Source: an uncultured archaeon
GTDB taxonomy: Archaea; Thermoproteota; Bathyarchaeia; 40CM-2-53-6; CALIRQ01
Reading direction: 5' to 3'
Length of the DNA: 64,000 nt
Assembly (NCBI GenBank): GCA_938042195.1
Contig: CALIRQ010000009.1
Location: 72,262-136,261, forward strand
Both the position numbers and the translations under genes were made by a program. Of this stretch, positions 16,427 through 60,307 are shown piece after piece. Every line of letters starts with the position of its first letter. Within the stretch, counting starts at the first letter, position 1. Below the pieces are notes generated by a model. The model had not been told where the DNA came from and did no database searches. It saw nothing but the letters and a program-made list of their open reading frames with translations.

Positions 16427-16678
16427 TTGGGGCTGGATGTGATCGATATATACCTATTGAACTTGGCCCTCACGATGGCCATGTTCTTGGTGCTCATATT
16501 CAGGGCTTGGATAGAGCTCAAGAACTATCAGATCATGTGGAGGGAGATAGGCTTCAGGAAGACGATGGAGCTTATAAGGAAGGTCCTGAGGGCCGAGAGG
16601 GATTCGTTCCTTGGGGTTGAGGGGGGACGGGAGCTCTACGAGTTGCTCTGCAAGGTCTTCGAGGTGGAGGCGGAATAG
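16427..16678 (+). CDS. Small hypothetical membrane protein
   Basis: 83 aa, TTG start, one predicted TM helix. It is weakly supported. Confidence 0.3.
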   Translation: MGLDVIDIYLLNLALTMAMFLVLIFRAWIELKNYQIMWREIGFRKTMELIRKVLRAERDSFLGVEGGRELYELLCKVFEVEAE

Positions 16679-16800: not shown

Positions 16801-17343
16801 CTATCCCTTCTCCTTAACGATCCTGTAGAAATGGACGTCGAGAAGGGTCCTTATGGCCTCGAGCCTCATGCCGAAGATTTGCTGCAACATGGCCTTCGTC
16901 ATCTCCGAGGGCAGGATTGGATGAGCGACTTGGATCTTCTCCCCTGATATCTCGAATACCCCCAGCCCGAATTTGTTGAGCACTTCGAATGCCTCCCTCA
17001 TCTTGGCCGGGTCCTTGCCATCTATCCCCCTAATCATCATGAGGGATCCGAGGACGTCCCCAAGCTCCCTCCCTATGATCTCATAATCCTCTTCCCGCAA
17101 TTTCTGGATCATCACGTCGAGCATCCTCTTGGCGAGGATCACCACTCTAACGGGCCCGAAGTAGAAGAGGCCCCCGTTCCATCGATCAATCGTATACTCC
17201 TTCCCGAATTTGACGCATTTCTCGACGAATTCCTTCAGGGATCGTATCCTCCCCTCCTTCAACAAGCCCATTATGTACTCGAAATCCTCGGGATCGAACT
17301 CCACCGAGGTGATGTGCGACCTCTTCTTATCCTGCCTCTCCAT
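16801..17343 (-). CDS. Hypothetical protein, possibly V4R-related, divergent partner of the next gene
   Basis: 180 aa soluble protein with a similar size and charge pattern to COG1719 V4R proteins. It has no Cys motif, so the assignment is weak. Confidence 0.35.
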   Translation of the reverse strand: MERQDKKRSHITSVEFDPEDFEYIMGLLKEGRIRSLKEFVEKCVKFGKEYTIDRWNGGLFYFGPVRVVILAKRMLDVMIQKLREEDYEIIGRELGDVLGSLMMIRGIDGKDPAKMREAFEVLNKFGLGVFEISGEKIQVAHPILPSEMTKAMLQQIFGMRLEAIRTLLDVHFYRIVKEKG

Positions 17344-17479
17344 ACCCTCCGCCGCGCGCCCCTCTTGGAGGATTAGGAGCCCAGCGTCCTAGGCATCGCC
17401 GCCCTAAATGGCCCCACCCCGCCTTTTTTAACCTACTATACTGGAAAATTTAAAATATTAGTATGTCCAACAAAAATAA
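17344..17479. promoter_or_regulatory. AT-rich divergent promoter region
   Basis: Low-GC segment (ttttttaacctactatactggaaaatttaaaatattagtatg) between two divergently oriented genes. It contains TATA-like tracts. Confidence 0.4.
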
Positions 17480-18322
17480 ATGGATCCATATATGCAATTG
17501 GAAGCCGCATATCCAAGGGGGGTCAGGGTTCTTTACCCCCGGGAGCTCGAGACGCTCATATTCCCCAAAGAGGATGGGCGGATAGTGGAGGCCCTGCTCG
17601 TCCTCAAGGATAGGTCGGATTGCCTGAGCAAGGTATTCGGGTTCCTCCACGGGATCGGGGCCGAAGTGGAGCATATGGAGATGTATAGGTCCGAATGGGA
17701 TGCGGGGAAGAAGATCCTCACCATGTTTCTGTCCTTCCCCAAGGACACCTTCAAAGTCGATTCGCTAAGGGAGGGGCTTTTGGGGCTGGATGTAGCTGAA
17801 GAATTGGAAATAGTTGAGCCGCAGCCCCTTCCCTATGAAACCATGCTATTCCCGATCAGGAATCTTCATAATAGGGTCCTGCTTTTCAGGGCGGAGCATG
17901 TCCATTTCGTAATGGATAGAATGGAGAAGATACTCACGCCGGCAGGGGCCGCCGTCCTATTCTTCAATATGGGGCTGGAGAACGGGAGGGCTTTGAGGAG
18001 ATTCATGGATACGATGGCGTGGAGTAGGGATCTGAGCTTCGAGGAGAAGCTCTGGGTATTGAAACATCACCTCAAATCCGTCGGGATGGGCGTGGTGGAG
18101 TTCTTGAACATCGACCTCGAGGCGGGGTATGCCTCCGTGAGGGTTTACGGTTCATTCGAGGCCGATGGTCGGAAGAAGGGCAGGCCGATATGCCATGTGA
18201 CCCGCGGCCTCTTCGTTGGATTCTTCGAGGAGGTGCTCGGGAAGAAGGCGAAGGCAACCGAATCGAAATGCGCGGCCATGGGGAACGATTTTTGTGAATT
18301 TGAGATCCGCTTTAGGCCCTAG
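17480..18322 (+). CDS. V4R (4-vinyl reductase) domain protein with N-terminal ACT-like region
   Basis: 280 aa with the C-terminal CHVTRGLFVGFFEEVLGKKAKATESKCAAMGNDFCEFEI, which matches the V4R C...G...C...G..C.F pattern. Confidence 0.55.
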   Translation: MDPYMQLEAAYPRGVRVLYPRELETLIFPKEDGRIVEALLVLKDRSDCLSKVFGFLHGIGAEVEHMEMYRSEWDAGKKILTMFLSFPKDTFKVDSLREGLLGLDVAEELEIVEPQPLPYETMLFPIRNLHNRVLLFRAEHVHFVMDRMEKILTPAGAAVLFFNMGLENGRALRRFMDTMAWSRDLSFEEKLWVLKHHLKSVGMGVVEFLNIDLEAGYASVRVYGSFEADGRKKGRPICHVTRGLFVGFFEEVLGKKAKATESKCAAMGNDFCEFEIRFRP

Positions 18323-18326
18323 AAGC

Positions 18327-19892
18327 CTAGAAGAGGCCTTGGGTCTTGAAGTAATTCTGATCTATCACCAGCTTCGGGATCTTCAGCCGACCCAGGGGTA
18401 TGTCGCCAGCACGGAAGGCCTTGATCTTCTGATTCCTAACCACCTCCATCGTATTCCTCTGCAAATGCTCTATCTTGAACTCCGCCATGCCCATATCCGT
18501 GACTATGAAGAAGGGCTCGAGCTCGATGCTCTCCCTCATGACCTTCAGGATCTCGGCCTCGAGGGCCTCCTTGCCCCTAAGGTATTCGGCCTCAACATAT
18601 AGGACGACCTCGGGCTTTCCTCCCTTGTACCGGAGTGTCATGAACCAATCCCTTATTCTTCCGCTCTCCCTTACCCTCGAAAGGGCCCCGAAGACATATT
18701 TCACGCAGAAGGGGGCCGCCGCCACCTTGACTAGAGTCGCCTCATATCCATCCAAACCGAGCTCCGGCTCATCGACCTTCCTGAGGGCCCTGCCCAGCAT
18801 CTCGAAGGCTGGCAATCCCTTCGGGCAATCCGGGGGGTCCTGGACCTTCTTTATGATGTCGCCCGTCCTATAGTTTATCCTGACGAAGCAATCGGAATTG
18901 ACCGTGAAAACCGCCTCGCCTATCGTTCCATCCGGCACATTCCATAGGAGGCGCTTCTCGGGCTCATGATCCGGATCCCTCCTCTCCCTTTCAATCTCCT
19001 CCAACGGTATGATTAGGGGCACATAGTTATCGAAGGCGGGATGCATCTTATCCTTATGGAATCTTTCCCCCTCCAAGAAGCATTCTCCACCTCCCCCAAC
19101 GACCTCGGTTGAAGCGTAGATCATGCAAGAGGGTTTGCCGAAGAACCCCGTGAAGAGCTCGTCTTGGAAATCGGTCCTAAAATCTCCGGACATATAGAGC
19201 TGGCAACCCCTGAATGCCCTCTCGATCTTCTTCTGTGCTATAAATAATAGGATCGTGGAAAGCAATGGGATTCTCCCGTACTTCTTCAGGAGCCTCCTCT
19301 TCTCATCCCTCAGGGCTAATAGGTGGGCCACGTATGGAAGCGTGAATAGTATATCGAATCTACCGTTATCGAAGACCTTATGCCTATTTTCGCCCAGTTC
19401 GGTGAAGGGCACCCCTACAGCCTCTCTTATCCAATTCAGTGCTAGCATTGGAACGGTCATCGAAACATAGCCCATGGGGGCCCCGAGGATGAGCGCCCTC
19501 GTCTCCGGGCCGAGCCCGAAGTTGTACATAACCCTCCCTATCATCCTTCTGAGCATATCCAAATCTTCCTCCGATGCCCATACGATCTTTTGCCTCCCAG
19601 ATGTGCCGGAGGACTTCCAAAAGGCCACTGGCTCAGCCGTTATGAGCTTCTCTAGCCCCCCAACCTCGTCGGCCTTCCTCTCGATATCCTTCCAATCTAT
19701 GGCGGGGTAATCCTCCAAGTCCTCTATATCCCGTATATTCTCGGCGTCCTCGTAGACCGGATTCTTCTTCGCGGCGGGTACGACGCGATAGGTAAGCCAA
19801 TCGTTCTCGAATTGTTGCCAAAACTCCAAGGGCCAATAGGCCGTCATCTCGATGTATCTACGTATTTCATCATAGGTTATCAAAGGAAACAC
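18327..19892 (-). CDS. GH3-family adenylate-forming acyl-acid amido synthetase homolog
   Basis: 521 aa with SSGTSGRQK (P-loop of the ANL/GH3 superfamily), IYASTEVVGGG (GH3 YASSE box) and NYRTGDI (GH3 YRxGD box). Confidence 0.7.
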   Translation of the reverse strand: MFPLITYDEIRRYIEMTAYWPLEFWQQFENDWLTYRVVPAAKKNPVYEDAENIRDIEDLEDYPAIDWKDIERKADEVGGLEKLITAEPVAFWKSSGTSGRQKIVWASEEDLDMLRRMIGRVMYNFGLGPETRALILGAPMGYVSMTVPMLALNWIREAVGVPFTELGENRHKVFDNGRFDILFTLPYVAHLLALRDEKRRLLKKYGRIPLLSTILLFIAQKKIERAFRGCQLYMSGDFRTDFQDELFTGFFGKPSCMIYASTEVVGGGGECFLEGERFHKDKMHPAFDNYVPLIIPLEEIERERRDPDHEPEKRLLWNVPDGTIGEAVFTVNSDCFVRINYRTGDIIKKVQDPPDCPKGLPAFEMLGRALRKVDEPELGLDGYEATLVKVAAAPFCVKYVFGALSRVRESGRIRDWFMTLRYKGGKPEVVLYVEAEYLRGKEALEAEILKVMRESIELEPFFIVTDMGMAEFKIEHLQRNTMEVVRNQKIKAFRAGDIPLGRLKIPKLVIDQNYFKTQGLF

Positions 19893-20024
19893 ACCACTCG
19901 ATTTTTTCGCATCAAAACCTTAAAAAATTTATTATTTTCAAAAAATAAGGCAGAATTAAATTGCTTTGCATTAAAAAAACGTAGCCGATCTGAATGGACT
20001 TAAATGAAAAATTTAGCCCGGATT
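19893..20024. promoter_or_regulatory. AT-rich convergent/terminator-promoter spacer
   Basis: About 25% GC stretch with T tracts (ttattattttcaaaaaataagg) between two minus-strand genes. Confidence 0.3.
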
Positions 20025-21119
20025 TCACGTTATAAAGTTCCTCAATCCTAGTTGGCGAGCGTATGCGACGACCTCTTGGAACTCCTCCCTCCTCAGCCTC
20101 CTCCCGAGCTCCTCTACCTCGTAATACCTCCATTCGGGCCTATATTGATCCATTATGTTCACCCTTGCCCAAGCCCCCAAGTTCTTCGCTATCCATTCCA
20201 AGATCGGCTTGGCGCAGCAATCTATATGGCTCGGCAGGACGAGGACCCTCACTATTATCTCGCCGTATTCCTTCGCGGCCAATAGGTTCCTGGTGGCGAC
20301 ATCCCAATAGGATGGCGCGGAGGAGATCCTCTCGGCGCATCCCCCTGGGCCGTATTTGAAGTCCAGCAGGTATACATCGGCGAAGTGGGCCAAAAGCTTG
20401 GCCGCCTCCTCGCTATAGTAGGAGTTGCTATTCCAAACGATCGGGACGTTCTCCCTTACGTATTTGAAGGTTTCCAGCCATTGGGGGAGCCACGGCGTGG
20501 GCTCCCCGCCAACAAGGTTGGCGTTCCTGCACCCCCTCGCCCTGAGCGCTTCCACCTCCTTCGCCAACGATCGAGGAGCATACGGCCTCCCGACCTCGTA
20601 CCATTGGGATATGGACCAATTTTGGCAATGGAGGCAGGCCATCGTGCAACCGTTCGTGAATATCGTCCCCGATGGCACGAGCTCGGGCTCCTCGCCCAAG
20701 TGCTCGAATATGGAGGAGACGTGGATCTCGGCCCCGCATCTGCAATACCCCAACTCCCCCTTGGCCCTATTCCTCCGGCAGCGCCTTTCGCAAAGCCTGC
20801 AGCTCTCCAAGATCCTTCGGGCCAAGCATAGCTTGAGGTCCAAAAGGGACCTCTCCGGGATGCCCGAGCCCACACCGAGGCCCTTCGCATCGAAGGCCCC
20901 CTCAAACTCCCTGAAGCTAGATATGGCCCTTTCGTGGAGCCCCCATAGCTCCTCCTCCACCGCCCCCTCTTGGAAATCCAGCGGGATTTGTTTGCAAATC
21001 ATGAACTTGGCCAGCTTCCTGCCCTCGAATACGTCGAAATAGCGGGATAGGCTAGACCTGCAGGCCTCATCCCGTAGGACCTCTATTGAGTCCGGCCTCA
21101 GGACCCCGAAGTAGGCCAA
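20025..21119 (-). CDS. Radical SAM protein, PflX family (pyruvate formate-lyase activating enzyme-related, COG1313)
   Basis: CTMACLHC (CxxxCxxC) plus the upstream Cys-rich CRLCERRCRRNRAKGELGYCRCG typical of PflX. Confidence 0.8.
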   Translation of the reverse strand: MAYFGVLRPDSIEVLRDEACRSSLSRYFDVFEGRKLAKFMICKQIPLDFQEGAVEEELWGLHERAISSFREFEGAFDAKGLGVGSGIPERSLLDLKLCLARRILESCRLCERRCRRNRAKGELGYCRCGAEIHVSSIFEHLGEEPELVPSGTIFTNGCTMACLHCQNWSISQWYEVGRPYAPRSLAKEVEALRARGCRNANLVGGEPTPWLPQWLETFKYVRENVPIVWNSNSYYSEEAAKLLAHFADVYLLDFKYGPGGCAERISSAPSYWDVATRNLLAAKEYGEIIVRVLVLPSHIDCCAKPILEWIAKNLGAWARVNIMDQYRPEWRYYEVEELGRRLRREEFQEVVAYARQLGLRNFIT

Positions 21120-21167
21120 TTCAGCCCCCGACTTCGGTATTGAAGCCGCGGCTTATGGGCTTTTCCC

Positions 21168-21704
21168 CTAGAGGTACGTGGAGCAAACCCCGCAGTACCA
21201 GCGCCCGGCCTTGGCCTCGTAGGTCAATGGGTTGCCGCAATTGGGGCAGGTCTGGATTGGAGGAGGCGTTGGGACGAGCAGGGCCGGGATGGCTATTGGC
21301 CCGTATTTAGCCGTGAGCTCCCCCGCTTTCGTGTAGGCCAAGAAGAAGAATATGGAGGCGAAGAGGGAGCCCGTCAAAAGGCTCACTATCGCCCAGAAGA
21401 GGCATGGCGTCTTGGCCGACTCGAATCTTCCCTCATCGATCTTCTTGAGGGTGGTTATGTAGACCAGCAGGAATATTATCAGCCCGAAGAGCGCCCAAGC
21501 CGTGATCCCGGCGGCTACGTAATAGACCGGGACCGTTATGATGGGCCACCACCATATGGTCATATCCGAGTAGAGGTAGGGCCAATAGGCCCACCAGAAC
21601 CATACGCATATGCCGAGGGATATAAGGAACCCGAAGAGGTAGGAGAGTACCCCGAGCGCGGCGTAAACATGCGCGGACCAGATATCGGCCGGCCTTTGGG
21701 ACAT
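21168..21704 (-). CDS. Membrane protein with C-terminal zinc ribbon
   Basis: 178 aa with four or five Trp-rich TM helices and a C-terminal CPNCGNPL...CGVC. Confidence 0.5.
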   Translation of the reverse strand: MSQRPADIWSAHVYAALGVLSYLFGFLISLGICVWFWWAYWPYLYSDMTIWWWPIITVPVYYVAAGITAWALFGLIIFLLVYITTLKKIDEGRFESAKTPCLFWAIVSLLTGSLFASIFFFLAYTKAGELTAKYGPIAIPALLVPTPPPIQTCPNCGNPLTYEAKAGRWYCGVCSTYL

Positions 21705-22201
21705 CGCGCGGCAGCCTCTTGAATCGGAATCGCGGTTTTTAGGGGCTCTATTGGATAGATAACATTTTGCATTCGCTAACCCATCATTTTAATAAAATTT
21801 ATAAATATCTATTATAAATTTTCCCATAAAATTTTTCATCTATGGTCTATAGGATGCCAATAGGCTGCGCGCATATTCCCAATGTTTCAAAATTCACCGG
21901 CGGAGGAGGTCGATCTTATCAACATCGCGCTGTTTTTCGAATAAATTTTATATACGGCTTCTCTCCCGCAAAAGATGCGCGGAGGTTGGGCGATGCGCAG
22001 GGAGTTCCGAGGGGATTCAGTTTATACGGGTCGCTCCCATAGCGGTAGCGCGCATCGAAACTCCTGAGCCCGCACCACGAAATCTTCTGGAAACCTTTCT
22101 GGAAGCTTCGAATGGATCTAGATACAACATATTCCGCCATTCTCTCGGAATGCACCCCGCGAGACAACCTCCGAGCCTGAAAACGACTAGTTGGAGGTGA
22201 C

Positions 22202-23899
22202 ATGTTTGGAAAGGGTTTTAGGCCTGCCGTTGATAACGGCCTTAGTGGTTTTTGGGATGCCCGCACTGATAACCTTGGCCCTGATCGCTTGGGCCCTTTG
22301 GTTCAAGGGGGAGGCGGAGCGCAGATGAGCATGGCGATGGCCGAGATAGTGCTGCTCTCGATAGCGATATACTTAGCCATAATAATGGCCATGGGGTTGG
22401 CCTTCTCCAAAAGGGTCAAGACGGCCTTGGATTTCGCAACCGCCGGAGGGGGGTTGGGCTTCTGGCTTTATACATTATTGATGGCGGGCTCCCTCATGAG
22501 CGGGATGACGGCGATGGGCGTCGCTGGGCTGGGGTTCCAAGCAGCTTATCAGACTTGGTGGGAGCAGCTGGCGGTCCCGCTCTCCATAGCGATATGCACG
22601 GCCATATACGGGCCCAAGCTGAACGCCATTGGAAGGAGGCTTGGTTTCGCAACCGTACAGGATTATTTGGCCTTCAGGTATTATGACATGAAGCTGGTTA
22701 GGGGGATATCGGGCCTGATATCAATATTCGTCTCCGCAGTATACTTGATAGGGCAGTATGTCGCCATAGGCATAGTATTAAAAGTGCTTATGGATTGGGA
22801 ATATTGGCAAGGGCTGCTCCTCACCGGGGCCATAGTGATACTATACGTCATGGCGGGCGGGTTGTTCGCGGTTGCTTGGACGACGCTCTTCCAGGGCCTC
22901 ATATTGGTGATCGGAGTGGTCCTAATGGTACCCCTCGTACTGGGCTCCGTCGGTGGCTTCGCCTCCATGAACGAGGCCCTTAGCGCCGCCAAGCCCGTAG
23001 GGCCCTTCAAACCCCCCGGGCTAGACATGCCATTTGGGGGGTTCGAGTTCCTCACGACCCCCCTCTACAACCTTACGCTCTTCGGGCTATCGGTCTTCCT
23101 CGGGCTCAGCGTCGCGCCCCATATAATAAACAACGTATTCGCCTTCAAGGATGTTAAATGCATAAAGTGGGGGCCCCTCGCGGGATTCTTAATCGGCGCC
23201 ATAGTGCTCGCCTCGACGAAAATAATTGGGATAGCCGGCAGGGTGGCTTGGAGCAAGGGGCTAATCGATATACCGAGCCATCCGGTGGTCCCCGGGGCGA
23301 AGTGGTCCGATATGGTGCTCCCGGCGATGATCAAGTTTGCCGTACCGCCGGTGCTCTGGGGGCTGTTCGCAGTGGTCATATTGGCCGCGGTGATGTCCAC
23401 TACGGATAGGCTTCTATTGACCATAGGGACCAACTTCTCTTGGGACATATACCGGAACTTGATCAACCCAAGGGCCAGCGATAGGAGGATCATGTCCATA
23501 GGCAGAGCGGCCGTGGCGATCGTGGGCTGCCTGACAATATTGGCGGCGCTATCCCCTCCCGCGTTGATCGCTTGGCTCATATGGGCGGCGCTGGGCATGA
23601 TGTTCTCCACGTGGTTCGTGGTGCTCGTGGGGGGCCTATTCTGGAGAAGGGCGACCAGGGAGGGCTGCATTGGGGGGATGCTATCCGGGTTCTTGGCCAC
23701 GGTCGTCGCCGGCATAATAGACGGGGGCGGGATATGGCCTCCCCCGCTTGGGTTCCGGTTCCCATTCTACTACGCGGTCCTAGGATTCATAACGAGCTCC
23801 TTGATCTTCGTGGCGATTAGCTTGGCGACCAAGAGGCCGCCGGAGAGGGTCATTGAGGATAGCCTGACCGGGCCGTTCCTGAGGTGGGCTGGTAAATAA
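22202..23899 (+). CDS. Sodium:solute symporter family (SSF) transporter
   Basis: 565 aa with about 13 TM helices and the SSF signature. GGAGGTGAC lies 4 nt upstream of the ATG. An alternative start at MSMAMAE (22322) is possible. Confidence 0.85.
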   Translation: MFGKGFRPAVDNGLSGFWDARTDNLGPDRLGPLVQGGGGAQMSMAMAEIVLLSIAIYLAIIMAMGLAFSKRVKTALDFATAGGGLGFWLYTLLMAGSLMSGMTAMGVAGLGFQAAYQTWWEQLAVPLSIAICTAIYGPKLNAIGRRLGFATVQDYLAFRYYDMKLVRGISGLISIFVSAVYLIGQYVAIGIVLKVLMDWEYWQGLLLTGAIVILYVMAGGLFAVAWTTLFQGLILVIGVVLMVPLVLGSVGGFASMNEALSAAKPVGPFKPPGLDMPFGGFEFLTTPLYNLTLFGLSVFLGLSVAPHIINNVFAFKDVKCIKWGPLAGFLIGAIVLASTKIIGIAGRVAWSKGLIDIPSHPVVPGAKWSDMVLPAMIKFAVPPVLWGLFAVVILAAVMSTTDRLLLTIGTNFSWDIYRNLINPRASDRRIMSIGRAAVAIVGCLTILAALSPPALIAWLIWAALGMMFSTWFVVLVGGLFWRRATREGCIGGMLSGFLATVVAGIIDGGGIWPPPLGFRFPFYYAVLGFITSSLIFVAISLATKRPPERVIEDSLTGPFLRWAGK

Positions 23900-25236
23900 T
23901 GGGGCGGGCGAAGGGCGCTTTAAAGAACGCATTCTGGGAGCCGGAGGCCGAGAGGCTGAGCCCGAAGCGGATAAAGGAGGTTCAGAACGAGAGGCTGAGG
24001 GGGCTCGTGAGGAGGGTTTACGAGGGGAGCGCCTTCTACAGGAAGCTTTTGAGGGAGAGGGGCATAGGGCCCGATTCCATAAGATCCATTGAGGACCTAG
24101 AGAAGCTCCCCTTTACAACCAAGGAGGACCTAAGGGATAATTACCCCTTTGGCCTTCTGGCGGTTCCATTCTCGAAGGTCGTTAGGATCCATACGTCCTC
24201 CGGGACCACTGGGAACCCGACCGTTGTGGCCTATAGCAGGAGGGATTTGGAGATATGGGCGAATTGCATTGCGAGATGCCTCACGATGACCGGCGTAACC
24301 CCGGAAGACGTATTCCAAGTGATATTGGGATACGGCCTATTCACGGGGGGCCTCGGATTTCATTATGGTGCCGAGCTGATAGGCGCGAAGGTCCTGCCGT
24401 CGTCAACGGGCGGGACGAAGAGGCAGGTCAAGCTGATGAAGGACTTTGGGGTCACGGCCTTCACGAGTATACCGTCCTATGCGCTCTACTTAGGGGAGAC
24501 GGCCATCGAGATGGGCATCAATCCCCAAAAGGACCTGAGGGTCAAGACGATAAGCTGCGGCGCCGAGCCTTGGTCCGAGGGCACTAGGGATAAGCTCGAG
24601 GACCTATTCGGTTGCATGGTCTTCAACTCCTACGGGCTATCGGAGGTCGGCGGCCCGGGTGTGGCGTTCGAATGCATTGCCCAAGACGGGCTCCACGTTT
24701 GGTCGGATCACTTCCTCATAGAGGTCATCGATCCCAAGACGGGCGAGGCCCTCCCCCCCGGCGAAGAAGGAGAGCTGGTCATAACGACCCTATCCAGGGA
24801 GGCCATGCCGTTGATCAGATACAGGACCAGGGACATAGCGATGATCCTGGATGATGACGTATGCGAATGCGGCAGGGCCCATAGGAGGATCTCATGGATA
24901 AAGGGGCGGACCGACGATATGATAAAGATAAGGGGGGTCAACGTCTTCCCGAGCCAAATAGAACACGTTCTAATGAGGATGCCTGGTGTCGGGAACAATT
25001 ACCAGATAGTGGTTGAGAAAAAGGGCCACATGGACGAATTGAAGGTTAGGATCGAGGTCACGGGGGATATTTTCAAGGGCGAATTGAAGGATTTGGTCGA
25101 ACTCAGGGAGAGGATATCCTCGGAGCTCGAGAACGCCCTAGGACTCCGCTTGACGGTAGAGCTCGCGGAGCCGGGCTCTCTGCCTAGGGCCGAGGGGAAG
25201 GCGGTTAGGGTTCTGGATCGGAGGCCGGAGAGATGA
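23899..25236 (+). CDS. paaK: Phenylacetate-CoA ligase family (PaaK / coenzyme F390 synthetase-like)
   Basis: 445 aa with SSGTTGNPTV, YGLSE and the C-terminal GR..DMIKIRGVNVFP motif. Confidence 0.85.
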   Translation: MGRAKGALKNAFWEPEAERLSPKRIKEVQNERLRGLVRRVYEGSAFYRKLLRERGIGPDSIRSIEDLEKLPFTTKEDLRDNYPFGLLAVPFSKVVRIHTSSGTTGNPTVVAYSRRDLEIWANCIARCLTMTGVTPEDVFQVILGYGLFTGGLGFHYGAELIGAKVLPSSTGGTKRQVKLMKDFGVTAFTSIPSYALYLGETAIEMGINPQKDLRVKTISCGAEPWSEGTRDKLEDLFGCMVFNSYGLSEVGGPGVAFECIAQDGLHVWSDHFLIEVIDPKTGEALPPGEEGELVITTLSREAMPLIRYRTRDIAMILDDDVCECGRAHRRISWIKGRTDDMIKIRGVNVFPSQIEHVLMRMPGVGNNYQIVVEKKGHMDELKVRIEVTGDIFKGELKDLVELRERISSELENALGLRLTVELAEPGSLPRAEGKAVRVLDRRPER

Positions 25237-25652
25237 AGGTGAGGAAACAGATCTCCGTATTCGTCGAGAACAAACCCGGTAGGCTATCGAAGGTCCTGGA
25301 GGTTCTTAGGGATGGTGGAATAGGCGTAGAGGCCTTCATGATAGCGGATGCCGGCGAGTTCGGCATAATCCATTTGATCCTAAGCGATCCGGCTCGAGGA
25401 AAGGAGCGCCTAGTGGAGAGCTCCTTCGCGATTTCCGAGAGCGACGTCTTGGTCTTGGGATCGGTTGATCAGGATCTGCTCCTCGAGCTCTCGACCGAGC
25501 TCGGGAGGAGCGATATCAATATTCAATACGCCTACGGGTCCTTAGGCGAAAAAGATTTAATCGTCATGAAGCTCTCTGATCTGGAAAGGGGCGAGGAGAT
25601 CTTCAAGGGGATCCTTTCGTCTCGGAGGGCTCCCCCCGCATCCTCCGAATAG
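25233..25652 (+). CDS. ACT domain protein
   Basis: 139 aa with ISVFVENKPGRLSKVLEVL. Its start overlaps the paaK stop by 4 nt, the classic PaaK-ACT pairing. Confidence 0.75.
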   Translation: MKVRKQISVFVENKPGRLSKVLEVLRDGGIGVEAFMIADAGEFGIIHLILSDPARGKERLVESSFAISESDVLVLGSVDQDLLLELSTELGRSDINIQYAYGSLGEKDLIVMKLSDLERGEEIFKGILSSRRAPPASSE

Positions 25653-57720: not shown

Positions 57721-57953
57721 CATGCCTCGCCATGCTTCGCCTCTTGGCAATCCCCGTTAAGGCCCATCTCGGGACGCCGATCACCTGCTACCGATCTTTT
57801 CAAATGCATCCAGAATGGATATAAGAGACCATTGCTCAAAAGTGAGTCCCTCAGACCGGCGCTGAGGAAAGCCCAACCTCCCAATCCTTAAGTTGACGAC
57901 CTTCATAACTATGGGAAAAGCTTAAGTCCAGCATCAACTCGAGGAGAAATCCG

Positions 57954-58572
57954 ATGAATAATATTAATGAGCTGCTCCAAAATATCTGTCTTGATTCACT
58001 AAATGCTGGGTGGTCAAGTGAAAGAGAAAAGCTAAATCCTATTGCCGAATTTATGGAAGAAGGTTGTGGAAGCATTAAAATCGACCTCCCAATTAAATTT
58101 TATAAAAGCAAGAAACATGACGTGCCTACCAATATTATCTTAAACATAATAGCATTGCATCATAGGGATTACTTTAGAGCAATTGCGGTATTGTGTTCAT
58201 GTGCAAGGCTGTAAGCTGGGGCTTGAGGCATTTCTTAAGAAAATTAAGGAACTTGATAGTGGATTAATAAGGATAGTTAAAGGAAATTTACGCAGACTTA
58301 TCCGCCATATTGAAAGAAGGGACCTTAAGCGCCGAGATAGGATTTCCATCTGGAAATCATGGCGGAGTGGCGTAATGCTTTCAGCAGAAAAATCGGCCAT
58401 TAGACGTAAGTGCACTCCAGTCATTAAAAAAGTAAAGGTCGAACTGGTTAAAGACGAAATAGGCAAAATGCAAATAAGAGATCTTGAGGCTACACGTCCA
58501 TTAGGTTTATTTGGTTTAATGCTTCAAGAAAGTCCAATAAGTTCGGCGAATGTCACAAAAGAAAGCCTTTAG
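57954..58572 (+). pseudogene. Frameshifted or two-piece ORF in a low-GC island; HEPN-like Rx4H motif (possible Abi/toxin-like gene)
   Basis: Two ORFs (57954-58214 and 58183-58572) overlap by 32 nt in adjacent frames. Both are Lys/Ile/Asn-rich and match the local approximately 38% GC. The second piece contains RRLIRHIERRD. Confidence 0.35.
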
Positions 58573-58631
58573 AAGCTGTCTTAAGTTGTTTCCACAAACG
58601 CTTATATTTTCCCACTTTTGTACGAGGCCTC

Positions 58632-58717
58632 GTGGGCTTTATCGCTAGCCTCTCGACGAAATCGGCCAAGGAGACCGTGGAAGGAACTATGCTGTGGGCT
58701 TTATCGCTAGCCTCTCG
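58632..58717. repeat. CRISPR-like mini-array: two identical 24-bp direct repeats around a 38-bp spacer
   Basis: GTGGGCTTTATCGCTAGCCTCTCG occurs at 58632-58655 and 58694-58717 with a 62-bp period. An AT-rich leader-like 60 bp lies upstream, and a perfect palindrome ATCGGGCCGGCCCGAT (58722-58737) lies downstream. Confidence 0.4.
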
Positions 58718-60215
58718 GGGCATCGGGCCGGCCCGATTCCAACAGCGCGGCGTTGAGCCGCCCGATGAAGCCGGTGAAGCGTTCCTCAGGAACCCTGGCG
58801 CCGGCCGATGCCCTCGCATAGACAGCCGCCTTCCCTAGGGGAACGGCATATCGATGACGTATGCCACAAGCCCTCGATCCTGATGCACTCCCCGATCGAT
58901 CGGATTCAGCTCCTCTTCCCTCCTGGCGCTCTCCAGGGCCGATTCGATGAGCCCCGCGTAGGCGCTGGGCGACTCTGGCGGCGAGGTGGGAAACTACGCC
59001 CCACTTGAAATCGTAATCCCGCTTCCTACCCTCGATCCCTTGGACCAATACGCTCGTTTCGAAGTATGCGGACCTCTTATCCCAATCGCAAAGCGATCGG
59101 CCACGGCGCCGAGGATCGCCACTGGCCCCCTCCCCTGGAAGAATCGATACGCCAGCTCCGAGGCCGATGAGCGGATATCGTGGACGACCCTAGCGTGGAT
59201 CTCGTCATCTGATAACCCCTGGGAAGGGGATAGGGATCGATATAGACCGCATCGCCCTTCTCGCCAAGCCTCGAATCTCATCCAAGGCAGCCGATAGCTC
59301 GCTCGGGCGCGGATATATCGCATATTATGACCGAATCGCCCCTCATCCGCGCTTCTCAAATCCCCAGGAAGGCCCACCGGATGCGTGAAGAGGACCGAGG
59401 CGCCGGGGTTGGCGGCCAGCGCGAGCGCCTCGGCGCATAGCCCATCAGTCGCCGTGCGTGAACATCCTCGCGGCCATATCGAAAACCCGTTTTGGATCCC
59501 GAGGATCCGATGCGCCGAGAGATAGATAAGGATTCCACGAGCATGGAGGTGGGGCGCACGGCGCAAAGGTTCGCGGGGGCCGATGCCCGGGCCGGGTTCA
59601 GGGCGATTCTATATCCTTGAACTTCGTCGTCCCACGCAGGCTGAACCTTATTGTGAACCTGCGGGGGGATTCGCTGTCCGGGGAGCGGTAGCTCCCCTCC
59701 GCCTCCCATAGATCGCCAACTCGGCGGATCCTCCTGAACTCCACGCCGTAGCCCTTCGGGCAAACCCTTTGGATCAACCTGATGGACCTCTCCCTGACCT
59801 CCCGCTCGGTTATCCCCGGCCTTTCGAAGCGCAGGATCCCTCCACCCCGATCGGCCGTTCCGCGGCCTTGCCTTGTAAACCTTTCCAAAATGGATGCCCC
59901 ATCGGCGCGATCGCGCAATGCCCTTTCTCGCCATTCGCTCGCGCCTGAGGAGGATGTAGGAGATGGCCAGCCAGATCGAGGATCCAATAGCTGAAGCCTC
60001 TGGCCAAATAGCTTGAGGGGGGTCCGCCTGGCCCCCGCATCGGCCCCTTCGGATGGCGCGGCCGAGGCCTATGATCGATTGAAAGCCGTTCATAGACCTT
60101 AAGCATAAAATAGTGCGGTTGATATCGAAAGACCATCACCGAGTGCTCATCGACCCTGGGGCTCCCATGGGCGGCCATTGCCATCAGAGCCGCGCTCGCG
60201 AGCACGGTGGCGTAA

Positions 60216-60307
60216 TGCGGCCGCCGGGATTCGAACCCGGGTCACTGGCGCTCCGCCCGATCAAAGTTGGCAGGCCAGCGTCTTGGACCAGGCTGGACTA
60301 CGGCCGC
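60216..60307 (-). tRNA. tRNA-Gly(GCC) with a 17-18 nt intron adjacent to the anticodon loop
   Basis: Reverse complement: GCGGCCG-UA-GUCC...AGAC-G-CUGGC-CUGCCA[intron ACUUUGAUCGGGCGGAGC]-GCCAG-UGAC-CCGGG-UUCGAAU-CCCGG-CGGCCGC-A. CCA is not encoded. Confidence 0.85.

Follow-up and report, generated by a model that had tools for sequence, protein, structure and literature searches.

A V4R protein adjoining a divergent ANL ligase in a probable mosaic of gene units from an uncultured Bathyarchaeia archaeon

Gene content and organization of the interval

The DNA under study, here called the window, is a stretch of 64,000 nucleotides from contig CALIRQ010000009.1 of an uncultured archaeon of the Bathyarchaeia. 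Positions 16801 to 25652 carry eight genes, g1 to g8, encoding a protein of no assigned family (g1), a V4R protein (g2), an ANL-type adenylate-forming ligase (g3), a radical SAM protein (g4), a membrane protein with a zinc ribbon (g5), a sodium:solute symporter family (SSF) transporter (g6), a PaaK-type ligase (g7) and an ACT protein (g8). A preliminary description drawn from the sequence had seen in them an accessory-type cluster and possibly a new module for the uptake, activation and conjugation, or the sensing, of an aryl acid. All eight open reading frames (ORFs) exist where that description placed them and are conserved in related metagenome-assembled genomes (MAGs) of Candidatus Bathyarchaeia, and six of its gene labels are valid at the family or superfamily level. 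As to how the genes relate to one another, we favor a mosaic of independent neighboring units over one pathway, with a probability of about 0.6. Gene identities at the superfamily level, operon geometry and patterns of co-conservation are what the comparison records directly.

The remainder of the window has genes for MCM, Cdc6, a Hel308-type helicase, RFC, the CCA-adding enzyme, SMC/ScpAB, TBP, SRP19 and S8e, and Bathyarchaeia MAGs were the sole source of exact or 94%-identical copies of its proteins. The window comes from the core part of a Candidatus Bathyarchaeia chromosome. Genes for TBP, signal peptidase, Lhr, SRP19, S8e, ScpAB and SMC flank the block of eight genes, and the whole block is syntenic in relatives together with these flanks. 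Its GC content of 0.547 is near the window value of 0.581. The housekeeping flanks, the synteny that includes them and the GC content speak against calling the cluster accessory.

Along the interval the strands alternate, with g1 on the minus strand, g2 on the plus strand, g3 and then g5-g4 on the minus strand, and a small ORF followed by g6, g7 and g8 on the plus strand. The spacers upstream of g2, g3 and g5 are 71-80% AT (75%, 71% and 80%, respectively). Because of the alternating strands and these AT-rich spacers, the layout indicates at least five separate transcription units, predicted to be g1, g2, g3, g5-g4 and the small ORF with g6-g7-g8.

Conservation of the g2-g3 pair in relatives

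Four close relatives (loci L002, L005, L093 and L094; g2 70-84% identical) retain all eight genes and every housekeeping flank in the same order. Because the housekeeping flanks are kept as well, this synteny is uninformative about functional linkage. Four further loci (L001, L006, L007 and L008), which carry a g3 homolog 50-54% identical to that of the window, have wholly different surroundings. A tblastn search of these loci with all eight window proteins recovered g2 and g3 only, and none of the four has genes for the radical SAM, SSF, PaaK or ACT proteins.

In the distant loci, the V4R gene is followed by the ligase gene in the same direction with gaps of 11-386 bp, whereas in the window the two genes are convergent with a gap of 4 bp; in L002 they overlap by 4 nt. 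An inversion has occurred without parting g2 and g3. An ABC ATPase gene comes after the ligase in 4/4 distant loci and a permease gene in three, the contig of L008 ending there. A binding protein of the NMT1/SsuA-like kind, which marks the NitT/TauT type of importer, is encoded in L001 and L007, and L001 and L006 each have a TrmB-family regulator gene upstream. Altogether, g2 and g3 are adjacent in 8/8 loci large enough to show it. Their adjacency has persisted through about 50% divergence, one inversion and a complete change of the genes around them, and nothing else in the interval is co-conserved with the pair. The earlier proposal that the GH3-like, V4R and radical SAM proteins act in one pathway fails in this comparison, the distant loci having kept g2 and g3 only.

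The g2-g3 pair, which falls within known superfamilies, is very rare and unannotated. No published account of the pair came to light, and literature searches on V4R with CoA ligase and on prokaryotic GH3 returned nothing relevant. As a separate observation, positions 3693-9680 of L087, a metagenomic PaaK locus, encode in a row a molybdopterin oxidoreductase, a PaaK-like ligase, a stand-alone V4R protein of 192 aa and a class I/II aminotransferase, a second case of a V4R protein adjoining an ANL ligase, in an aromatic-looking context.

g3 as a divergent ANL ligase

The g3 gene (18327-19892, minus strand) encodes a GH3/PaaK-like ANL adenylate-forming enzyme of 518-521 aa, with a TTG at 19883 as its probable start. 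The spacer that runs from the stop of g4 to the start of g3 (19893-20024), which is 71% AT over 132 bp and contains TATA-like runs, is the probable g3 promoter; it is poorly conserved, with 34% of its positions invariant in a four-way comparison. The motifs SSGTSGRQK (residues 94-102), YASTE (259-263), YRTGD (341-345), GR (367-368) and LGRLKIPK (with K504) are conserved in the family, and because of them g3 can be predicted with certainty to be an ANL enzyme. SSGTSGRQK, YASTE, YRTGD and LGRLKIPK are invariant or near-invariant in an alignment of eight family members and fit what we take to be the GH3 form of the consensus (SSGTSxGxxK, YxSxE, YRxGD and the lysine of GQxKxPR).

Domain models did not place g3 in either of the two nearest families. 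The GH3_N match covers 55 residues (65-119) and, at 21.3 bits, falls short of the cut-off of 23.6, there is no match to GH3_M or GH3_C in Pfam, and in the family member P0004 GH3_C reaches 16 bits (cut-off 23.6). Matches to the PaaK N-terminus are as weak as those to GH3_N. The PaaK models TIGR02155 and NF041878 give 18.5 bits (cut-off 646) and 29 bits (cut-off 700), and AMP-binding_C_2 gives no match in g3. The name "GH3 homolog" used earlier is not borne out by the GH3 domain models; the ANL motifs have the GH3 form. Within the PaaK/GH3 branch of ANL enzymes, g3 represents a divergent subfamily that is new and, by curated criteria, belongs to neither family.

The sole significant match of g3 among PDB sequences was 4r1l, a PaaK (E 0.0024). 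An AlphaFold2 model built from the eight-sequence alignment had a predicted local distance difference test score (pLDDT) of 52. Foldseek searches with this low-confidence model, which is good enough for ANL-type matching only and not for pocket analysis, returned only ANL enzymes, with PaaK1 (1e-10) ahead of GH3.5 (1e-7) and template modeling scores of about 0.3. The best fold matches were PaaK1 and PaaK2 of Burkholderia cenocepacia and BT_0428 of Bacteroides thetaiotaomicron, with E-values of 1e-10 to 1e-9. Like the solved PaaKs, g3 has an N-terminal helical microdomain region and a P-loop, but it is only 14-16% identical to them, has no AMP-binding_C_2 and, in an alignment with its nearest relatives and g7, shows neither the GRxDD hinge nor the C-x-C-G motif. 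Plant GH3 enzymes (JAR1, GH3.5 and GH3.6) share with g3 the motifs SSGTSG-x-x-K, Y-A-S-T-E, Y-R-T-G-D, P-x-F-x-x-x-G-R and the C-terminal G-x-L-K-x-P-K, and the three were Foldseek matches to the model at 1e-7 to 1e-6. In contrast to the plant enzymes, g3 is about 60-80 residues shorter than their solved chains, stays under the Pfam cut-offs, has Foldseek and PDB sequence matches that lean toward PaaK and has an obligatory V4R neighbor.

The g3 family is small. Single-sequence and profile queries alike retrieved seven clusters from 5.8 billion proteins, and an exhaustive hidden Markov model (HMM) search, run over 1.84 billion representatives, turned up a single full-length family representative and one fragment. 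The next matches of that search beyond the family, at E ~1e-22, were uncharacterized proteins bordering AMP-binding and GH3_N. A scan of GTDB genomes with the family alignment gave no confirmed relative. In annotations from the Prokaryotic Genome Annotation Pipeline (PGAP), g3 is a "hypothetical protein" and one partial family member is named "GH3 auxin-responsive promoter family protein". An insertion at about residues 292-315 is common only to a small set of uncharacterized ANL proteins. The residues C230, C256, C271, H279, H284, C335 and C356 are invariant in the family; several of them lie in or near an insertion that PaaK lacks, and they may form a metal site or a redox feature that sets this family apart.

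Outside the family, the group nearest to g3 is one of ANL proteins that we call P0010-like; its genes stand in arrays where two or three ANL paralogs follow one another, a PaaK-like gene among them (L015, 2414-7452; L013, 3329-7506). No V4R, ACT or transporter gene lies near these two arrays, and no V4R gene was found in four true P0010-like loci.

g2 as a two-domain ligand-binding protein

The g2 gene (17480-18322, plus strand) encodes a two-domain ligand-binding protein of 280 aa. Residues 220-277 match Pfam V4R with 60 bits against a cut-off of 31, and the C-terminal half gives PDB profile matches to MJ1460 and to the sensor domains of MopR and PoxR (2osd, 5kbe, 5fru). The residues C238, C264 and C272 are invariant, as is E261, and the 26/8 spacing of the three cysteines is that of the MopR zinc cysteines C155/C181/C189. 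This agreement points to a predicted MopR-like structural zinc site beside a ligand pocket rather than to reactive thiols. V4R is homologous to Bet3/TRAPPC3, a fatty-acyl binder (PMC2253512), a similarity also noted in the MopR paper. Because the g2 cysteines match the MopR structural zinc site, they are unlikely to be acyl acceptors, and a Bet3-like role for them was rejected in favor of that site.

The N-terminal domain appears to be ACT-like: within the first 120 residues, 38-89 align weakly to the ACT family of g8 homologs over the canonical beta-alpha-beta region, with an hhalign E of 0.0017 and a probability of 15%. We detected no DNA-binding or output domain in g2, and a homolog search retrieved five close relatives only. 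The phenol sensors MopR, DmpR and PoxR and the protein MJ1460 have the V4R domain in common with g2, and MopR has the cysteine spacing too. Unlike MopR-type sensors, however, g2 has no AAA+ or DNA-binding output, carries the additional ACT-like N-terminal domain and is paired to an enzyme, not to a promoter. PYP-V4R proteins have been described with two input domains, and in this they resemble the output-less g2 (PMC12826048).

The predicted SSF-PaaK-ACT operon

On the plus strand, reading and hydropathy revealed a small membrane ORF of 43 codons from GTG (22197-22328) whose stop overlaps the g6 start (ATGA). It is annotated with 39-40 aa in L002, L005, L093 and L094, with 80% identity by tblastn in L002, and it looks like a membrane subunit or leader of the symporter. 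The g6 gene (22325-23899, plus strand) encodes an SSF transporter of 524 aa that scores 205.7 bits with Pfam SSF (cut-off 22.8) and 185.3 with TIGR00813 (cut-off 184); its scores against the substrate equivalogs PutP, PanF and ActP were all below cut-off. The symporter family assigned in the preliminary description holds, but the start at 22202 (565 aa) probably does not. Since the small ORF overlaps by ATGA and relatives annotate both a 39-40-aa ORF and a 524-aa SSF protein, the true start is most likely 22325.

The g7 gene (23899-25236, plus strand) encodes a PaaK-type aryl-acid CoA ligase of 445 aa with AMP-binding and AMP-binding_C_2 above cut-off. Its residues 18-442 align to positions 1-422 of TIGR02155 with 502 bits, and NF041878 gives 491 bits; both scores fall short of the equivalog cut-offs (646 and 700). 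PGAP names the members of its cluster phenylacetate--CoA ligase. The full-length PaaK alignment and both Pfam domains put g7 in the PaaK family; at scores under the equivalog cut-offs, the PaaK models would not fix which aryl acid it prefers. The g8 gene (25233-25652, plus strand) encodes a tandem-ACT protein of 139 aa (ACT_8, 64 bits against a cut-off of 23.5). The overlaps run in series, from the ATGA shared by the small ORF and g6, through 1 nt between g6 and g7, to a second ATGA (4 nt) between g7 and g8.

For a view of such genes elsewhere, neighborhoods were sampled at 80 metagenomic PaaK-like loci, which came from a scan for P0010-like ANL proteins with a seed pattern common to PaaK. A g8-like ACT gene was present in 45 of them, IorA in 21, SSF in three, and radical SAM and V4R genes in one each. 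ACT also lies beside PaaK in the bacterial loci L010-L012. The trio of SSF, PaaK and ACT recurs on three unrelated contigs, L010 (a Planctomycetota MAG, in the order PaaK-ACT-SSF-PaaK), L035 (PaaK-ACT-SSF) and L040. The view of ACT as the usual PaaK partner is upheld by the ACT_8 match, the 4-nt overlap with g7 and the adjacency in 45/80 loci. Likewise, the gene overlaps, the independent recurrence of the trio and the general PaaK-ACT adjacency agree with an uptake and activation unit for an aryl or acyl acid. By their overlaps, the genes are predicted to form one operon with translational coupling, of a kind that is recurrent and ordinary.

In other anaerobes, the PaaK-ACT module feeds, or is fed by, indolepyruvate:ferredoxin oxidoreductase (IOR). 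Compared with the PaaK and ACT modules of anaerobic bacteria and archaea, with or without IOR, the operon of the window has a ligase, g7, that aligns to PaaK over its full length and a tandem ACT protein overlapping the g7 stop, but there is no IOR gene in the window and the pair sits in an operon with SSF and the 43-codon membrane ORF. Archaeal PaaK enzymes turn phenylacetate into its CoA ester in vitro (PMC10581246), and, according to a passage of PMC4162585 citing Porat et al., Methanococcus maripaludis converts aryl acids into aromatic amino acids via IOR.

The spacer of 492 bp between g5 and the operon (21705-22196) contains a conserved non-coding island at 21865-22035, which is 60-72% four-way invariant compared with 5-30% for the flanking spacer and about 70% for coding DNA. 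TATA-like boxes occur at ~21793, ~21806, ~21940 (AATAAATTTTATATA) and ~22017 (GTTTATAC), and a conserved TTGGATAGATAACATTTTGCAT block lies at ~21750-21770, left of the island. The island is probably the control region (promoter or operator DNA) of the SSF-PaaK-ACT operon. It showed no Rfam match, no conserved fold and no covariation, with a weak consensus fold of -9 kcal/mol, and on these grounds promoter or operator DNA is preferred to a riboswitch or small RNA; less probably, the island may hold an unannotated small RNA.

The probable g5-g4 radical SAM unit

The g4 gene (20025-21119, minus strand) encodes a radical SAM protein of 364 aa from an uncharacterized activase-like (PflX-type) family, with matches to Radical_SAM (67 bits) and Fer4_12 (33 bits). 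It has a CX3CX2C core (C158-x3-C162-x2-C165), an N-terminal extension of 150 residues and the extra cysteines C107-x2-C110-x3-C114 and C126-x-C128. Among the curated activase models searched (PflA, NrdG, PFLE_PFLC and YjjW, a set that included no PflX/COG1313 model), the best score was that of NrdG2 (32.7 against a cut-off of 131); PflA gave 25.9 bits (cut-off 232), and AmmeMemoRadiSam was also far under its cut-off. Of the label "PflX radical SAM", the radical SAM core stands, while the curated activase cut-offs are not reached. No solved-structure relative was found by PDB sequence, and a literature search on PflX/COG1313 gave nothing relevant.

The remark that a glycyl-radical partner is missing proved right for the whole window, in which every ORF of at least 680 aa is explained (Lhr, SMC, HypF, the Hel308-type helicase and MCM). 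No glycyl-radical enzyme was seen beside the g4 homologs of L040, Natronorubrum, Microvirga and Vescimonas either. The activases PflA, NrdG and PflX have the CX3CX2C core and Fer4_12 in common with g4, NrdG and PflA being its best weak matches, whereas g4 scores far below the activase cut-offs, bears the 150-residue extension and the additional cysteine cluster, and has no enzyme partner in the window.

The g5 gene (21168-21704, minus strand) encodes a membrane protein of 178 aa with a C-terminal zinc ribbon. Its hydrophobic segments at about 10-41, 54-90 and 99-125 fit three to four membrane helices, and together with CPNC-x14-CGVC they confirm the description as a Zn-ribbon membrane protein, although Pfam zinc-ribbon matches remained under threshold. 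Homologs of g5 were found in close relatives only. Since g4 follows g5 on the same strand after 48 bp, the two genes are probably co-transcribed.

One alternative to independence of this unit is that g4, with g5, belongs functionally to the divergent SSF-PaaK-ACT operon, using the 21865-22035 control region in common and drawing on the same aryl-acid pool. The two units indeed diverge around a spacer with strongly conserved blocks, and positions 180-8704 of L040, a digester metagenome contig, encode SSF, a g4 homolog on the opposite strand (36% identity, E 6e-46), PaaK, ACT, PaaK and IorA. L040 is the sole independent co-occurrence of a g4 homolog with a PaaK module. Such a gene is present in 1/80 PaaK-like loci, where chance would give about 0.3 by a rough estimate, and the g4 homologs in Natronorubrum, Microvirga and Vescimonas have unrelated neighbors with no PaaK, ACT or SSF. 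Nor does L040 contain a g5 homolog; a 138-aa ORF upstream of its radical SAM gene was considered as a g5 equivalent and rejected for its low-complexity translation and lack of similarity. We therefore regard the link between g4 and the operon as unlikely.

Relations among the units

If the interval is a mosaic, the SSF protein would import an aryl or acyl carboxylate and PaaK would form the CoA thioester, with the ACT protein probably serving as a small-molecule-sensing partner that modulates PaaK. The g3 enzyme would adenylate a carboxylate, other than the SSF cargo or possibly the same, and transfer it to a thiol or amine. Most likely, g2 would bind a small hydrophobic or aromatic ligand and either gate g3 or hand over its substrate. 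In other lineages, the g2-g3 pair would be served by an ABC importer of the NitT/TauT type (four loci) and a TrmB regulator (two loci). Transcription might be controlled locally by g1 and elsewhere by TrmB where it is present, and g5-g4 would be a separate, independent unit of a membrane zinc-ribbon and a radical SAM protein. In this scheme the substrates, any physical or functional coupling of g2 and g3, and the role of g1 are what we infer.

Several points weigh against the mosaic. The transcription units are deduced from gene geometry alone and thus stay predictions. The structure model of g3 is poor (pLDDT 52), and the alignment behind the putative ACT-like domain of g2 is weak (15% probability). 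The g3 family is known from about eight lineages, and co-conservation rests on four independent distant loci. L040 leaves room for a link of g4 to the PaaK operon, the acid imported by the SSF protein could still be the g3 substrate in this clade, and the window has no IOR gene beside its PaaK-ACT pair.

All the same, a single module of eight genes seems improbable. In such a module, SSF would import an aryl acid, which PaaK and the GH3-like enzyme would activate and join to an amino acid, with the V4R proteins sensing the acid and the radical SAM protein modifying it. In its favor, the genes stand side by side in five sequenced relatives, aromatics are sensed by the V4R domains of MopR-type regulators, g3 has GH3-like motifs down to the C-terminal G-x-L-K-x-P-K, and L040 unites SSF, a g4-like radical SAM, PaaK and ACT. 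However, the contiguity is genus-level synteny that also covers the TBP, SRP19 and SMC flanks, the distant g3 loci do without radical SAM, SSF, PaaK and ACT, and PaaK-ACT(-SSF) is widespread without g3 or V4R. The genes also fall into at least five predicted transcription units on alternating strands.

Within the mosaic, the specific role of g2 and g3 is a hypothesis. A tentative proposal, to which we give a minor share of belief, is that they form an undescribed pair restricted to Bathyarchaeia, in which the output-less ACT-like/V4R protein would bind a hydrophobic or aromatic carboxylate and present it to, or allosterically gate, a GH3-like ligase that makes an amide, like those of plant hormone conjugation, or a thioester, with dedicated importers supplying the substrate. 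These importers would be the NitT/TauT ABC systems in other lineages and possibly the neighboring SSF protein here. The interval would contain two ANL ligases that each have a small-molecule-binding partner, PaaK with ACT and g3 with ACT-like/V4R, an unproven parallel. If true, the proposal would describe a GH3-type pathway of conjugation in a prokaryote, with V4R as its specificity or regulatory subunit. Cooperation of g2 and g3 would add a new accessory-subunit logic for adenylate-forming enzymes and supply an enzymatic partner for archaeal V4R proteins, whose roles are, to our knowledge, mostly unknown.

It is less probable again than a single module that g3 modifies a protein or cofactor as an adenylyltransferase of the F390 synthetase or LuxE type, with g2 as its target or specificity subunit. 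Such a role would suit the position of g3 in the PaaK/F390-synthetase/GH3 branch of ANL enzymes, its obligatory pairing with a non-enzymatic, output-less protein and the homology of V4R to the fatty-acyl-binding Bet3/TRAPPC3 (PMC2253512). Yet g3 has no match to F390 synthetase or LuxE models, the g2 cysteines correspond to the MopR structural zinc site and are unlikely acyl acceptors, and the importer adjoining the pair in the distant loci argues for a small-molecule substrate. Least probable of all is that g2 and g3 have no functional relation and their adjacency is a historical accident: the g3 family is small with all known members from one class, and the gaps (11-386 bp) and orientation of the pair vary between clades, but the adjacency outlives 50% divergence, inversion and full neighbor turnover in four independent loci.

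Bathyarchaeia are abundant, largely uncultured archaea and proposed users of aromatic and lignin-derived compounds; metabolic reconstructions therefore hinge on the correct reading of such clusters. For the SSF-PaaK-ACT genes, annotation as a common type of unit that takes up and activates aryl acids is reasonably safe, and they should not be merged with their neighbors into a new pathway.

g1 and other features of the window

The g1 gene (16801-17343, minus strand) encodes a protein of 180 aa without a library match, since neither Pfam, even at E 10, nor NCBIfam returned anything. An hhalign comparison with the V4R family of g2 gave a probability of 0.2%, and the cysteine triad is absent. An AlphaFold2 model from the single sequence (pLDDT 49) has a beta strand at 13-15 and helices at 18-29 and 36-46; Foldseek found no meaningful fold match for this model, which is too poor to decide. 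Homologs of g1 are confined to close relatives. Of the two V4R-like proteins announced in the preliminary description, g2 is one by its Pfam V4R score of 60 bits, and g1 finds no HMM, hhalign or fold support. Going by the model, g1 possibly combines a beta-alpha-alpha (ribbon-helix-helix-like) N-terminus with a helical domain, an arrangement that would fit a regulator acting locally.

The divergent spacer between g1 and g2 (17344-17479) had been taken for an AT-rich promoter that both genes share. The AT fraction is 0.75 in the 60 bp on the g2 side (17420-17479) and 0.30 in the 76 bp on the g1 side (17344-17419), so that only the g2-proximal part is AT-rich and looks like a promoter. Between the signal peptidase gene and g1 lies an ORF of 83 aa with a hydrophobic N-terminus (16427-16678, plus strand), and relatives annotate 73-81 aa at the same site.

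Far from the interval, positions 57900-58720 contain only short ORFs (86 and 129 aa). The lowest GC content of the window, 0.478, is at 58001-59000, and an exact 24-nt direct repeat occurs at 58632 and 58694; 57900-58720 may be non-coding or may have arisen as a small foreign insertion. A tRNA of 92 nt at 60216-60307 (minus strand), which Rfam detected with 54.8 bits and ARAGORN missed, is probably an intron-containing archaeal tRNA.

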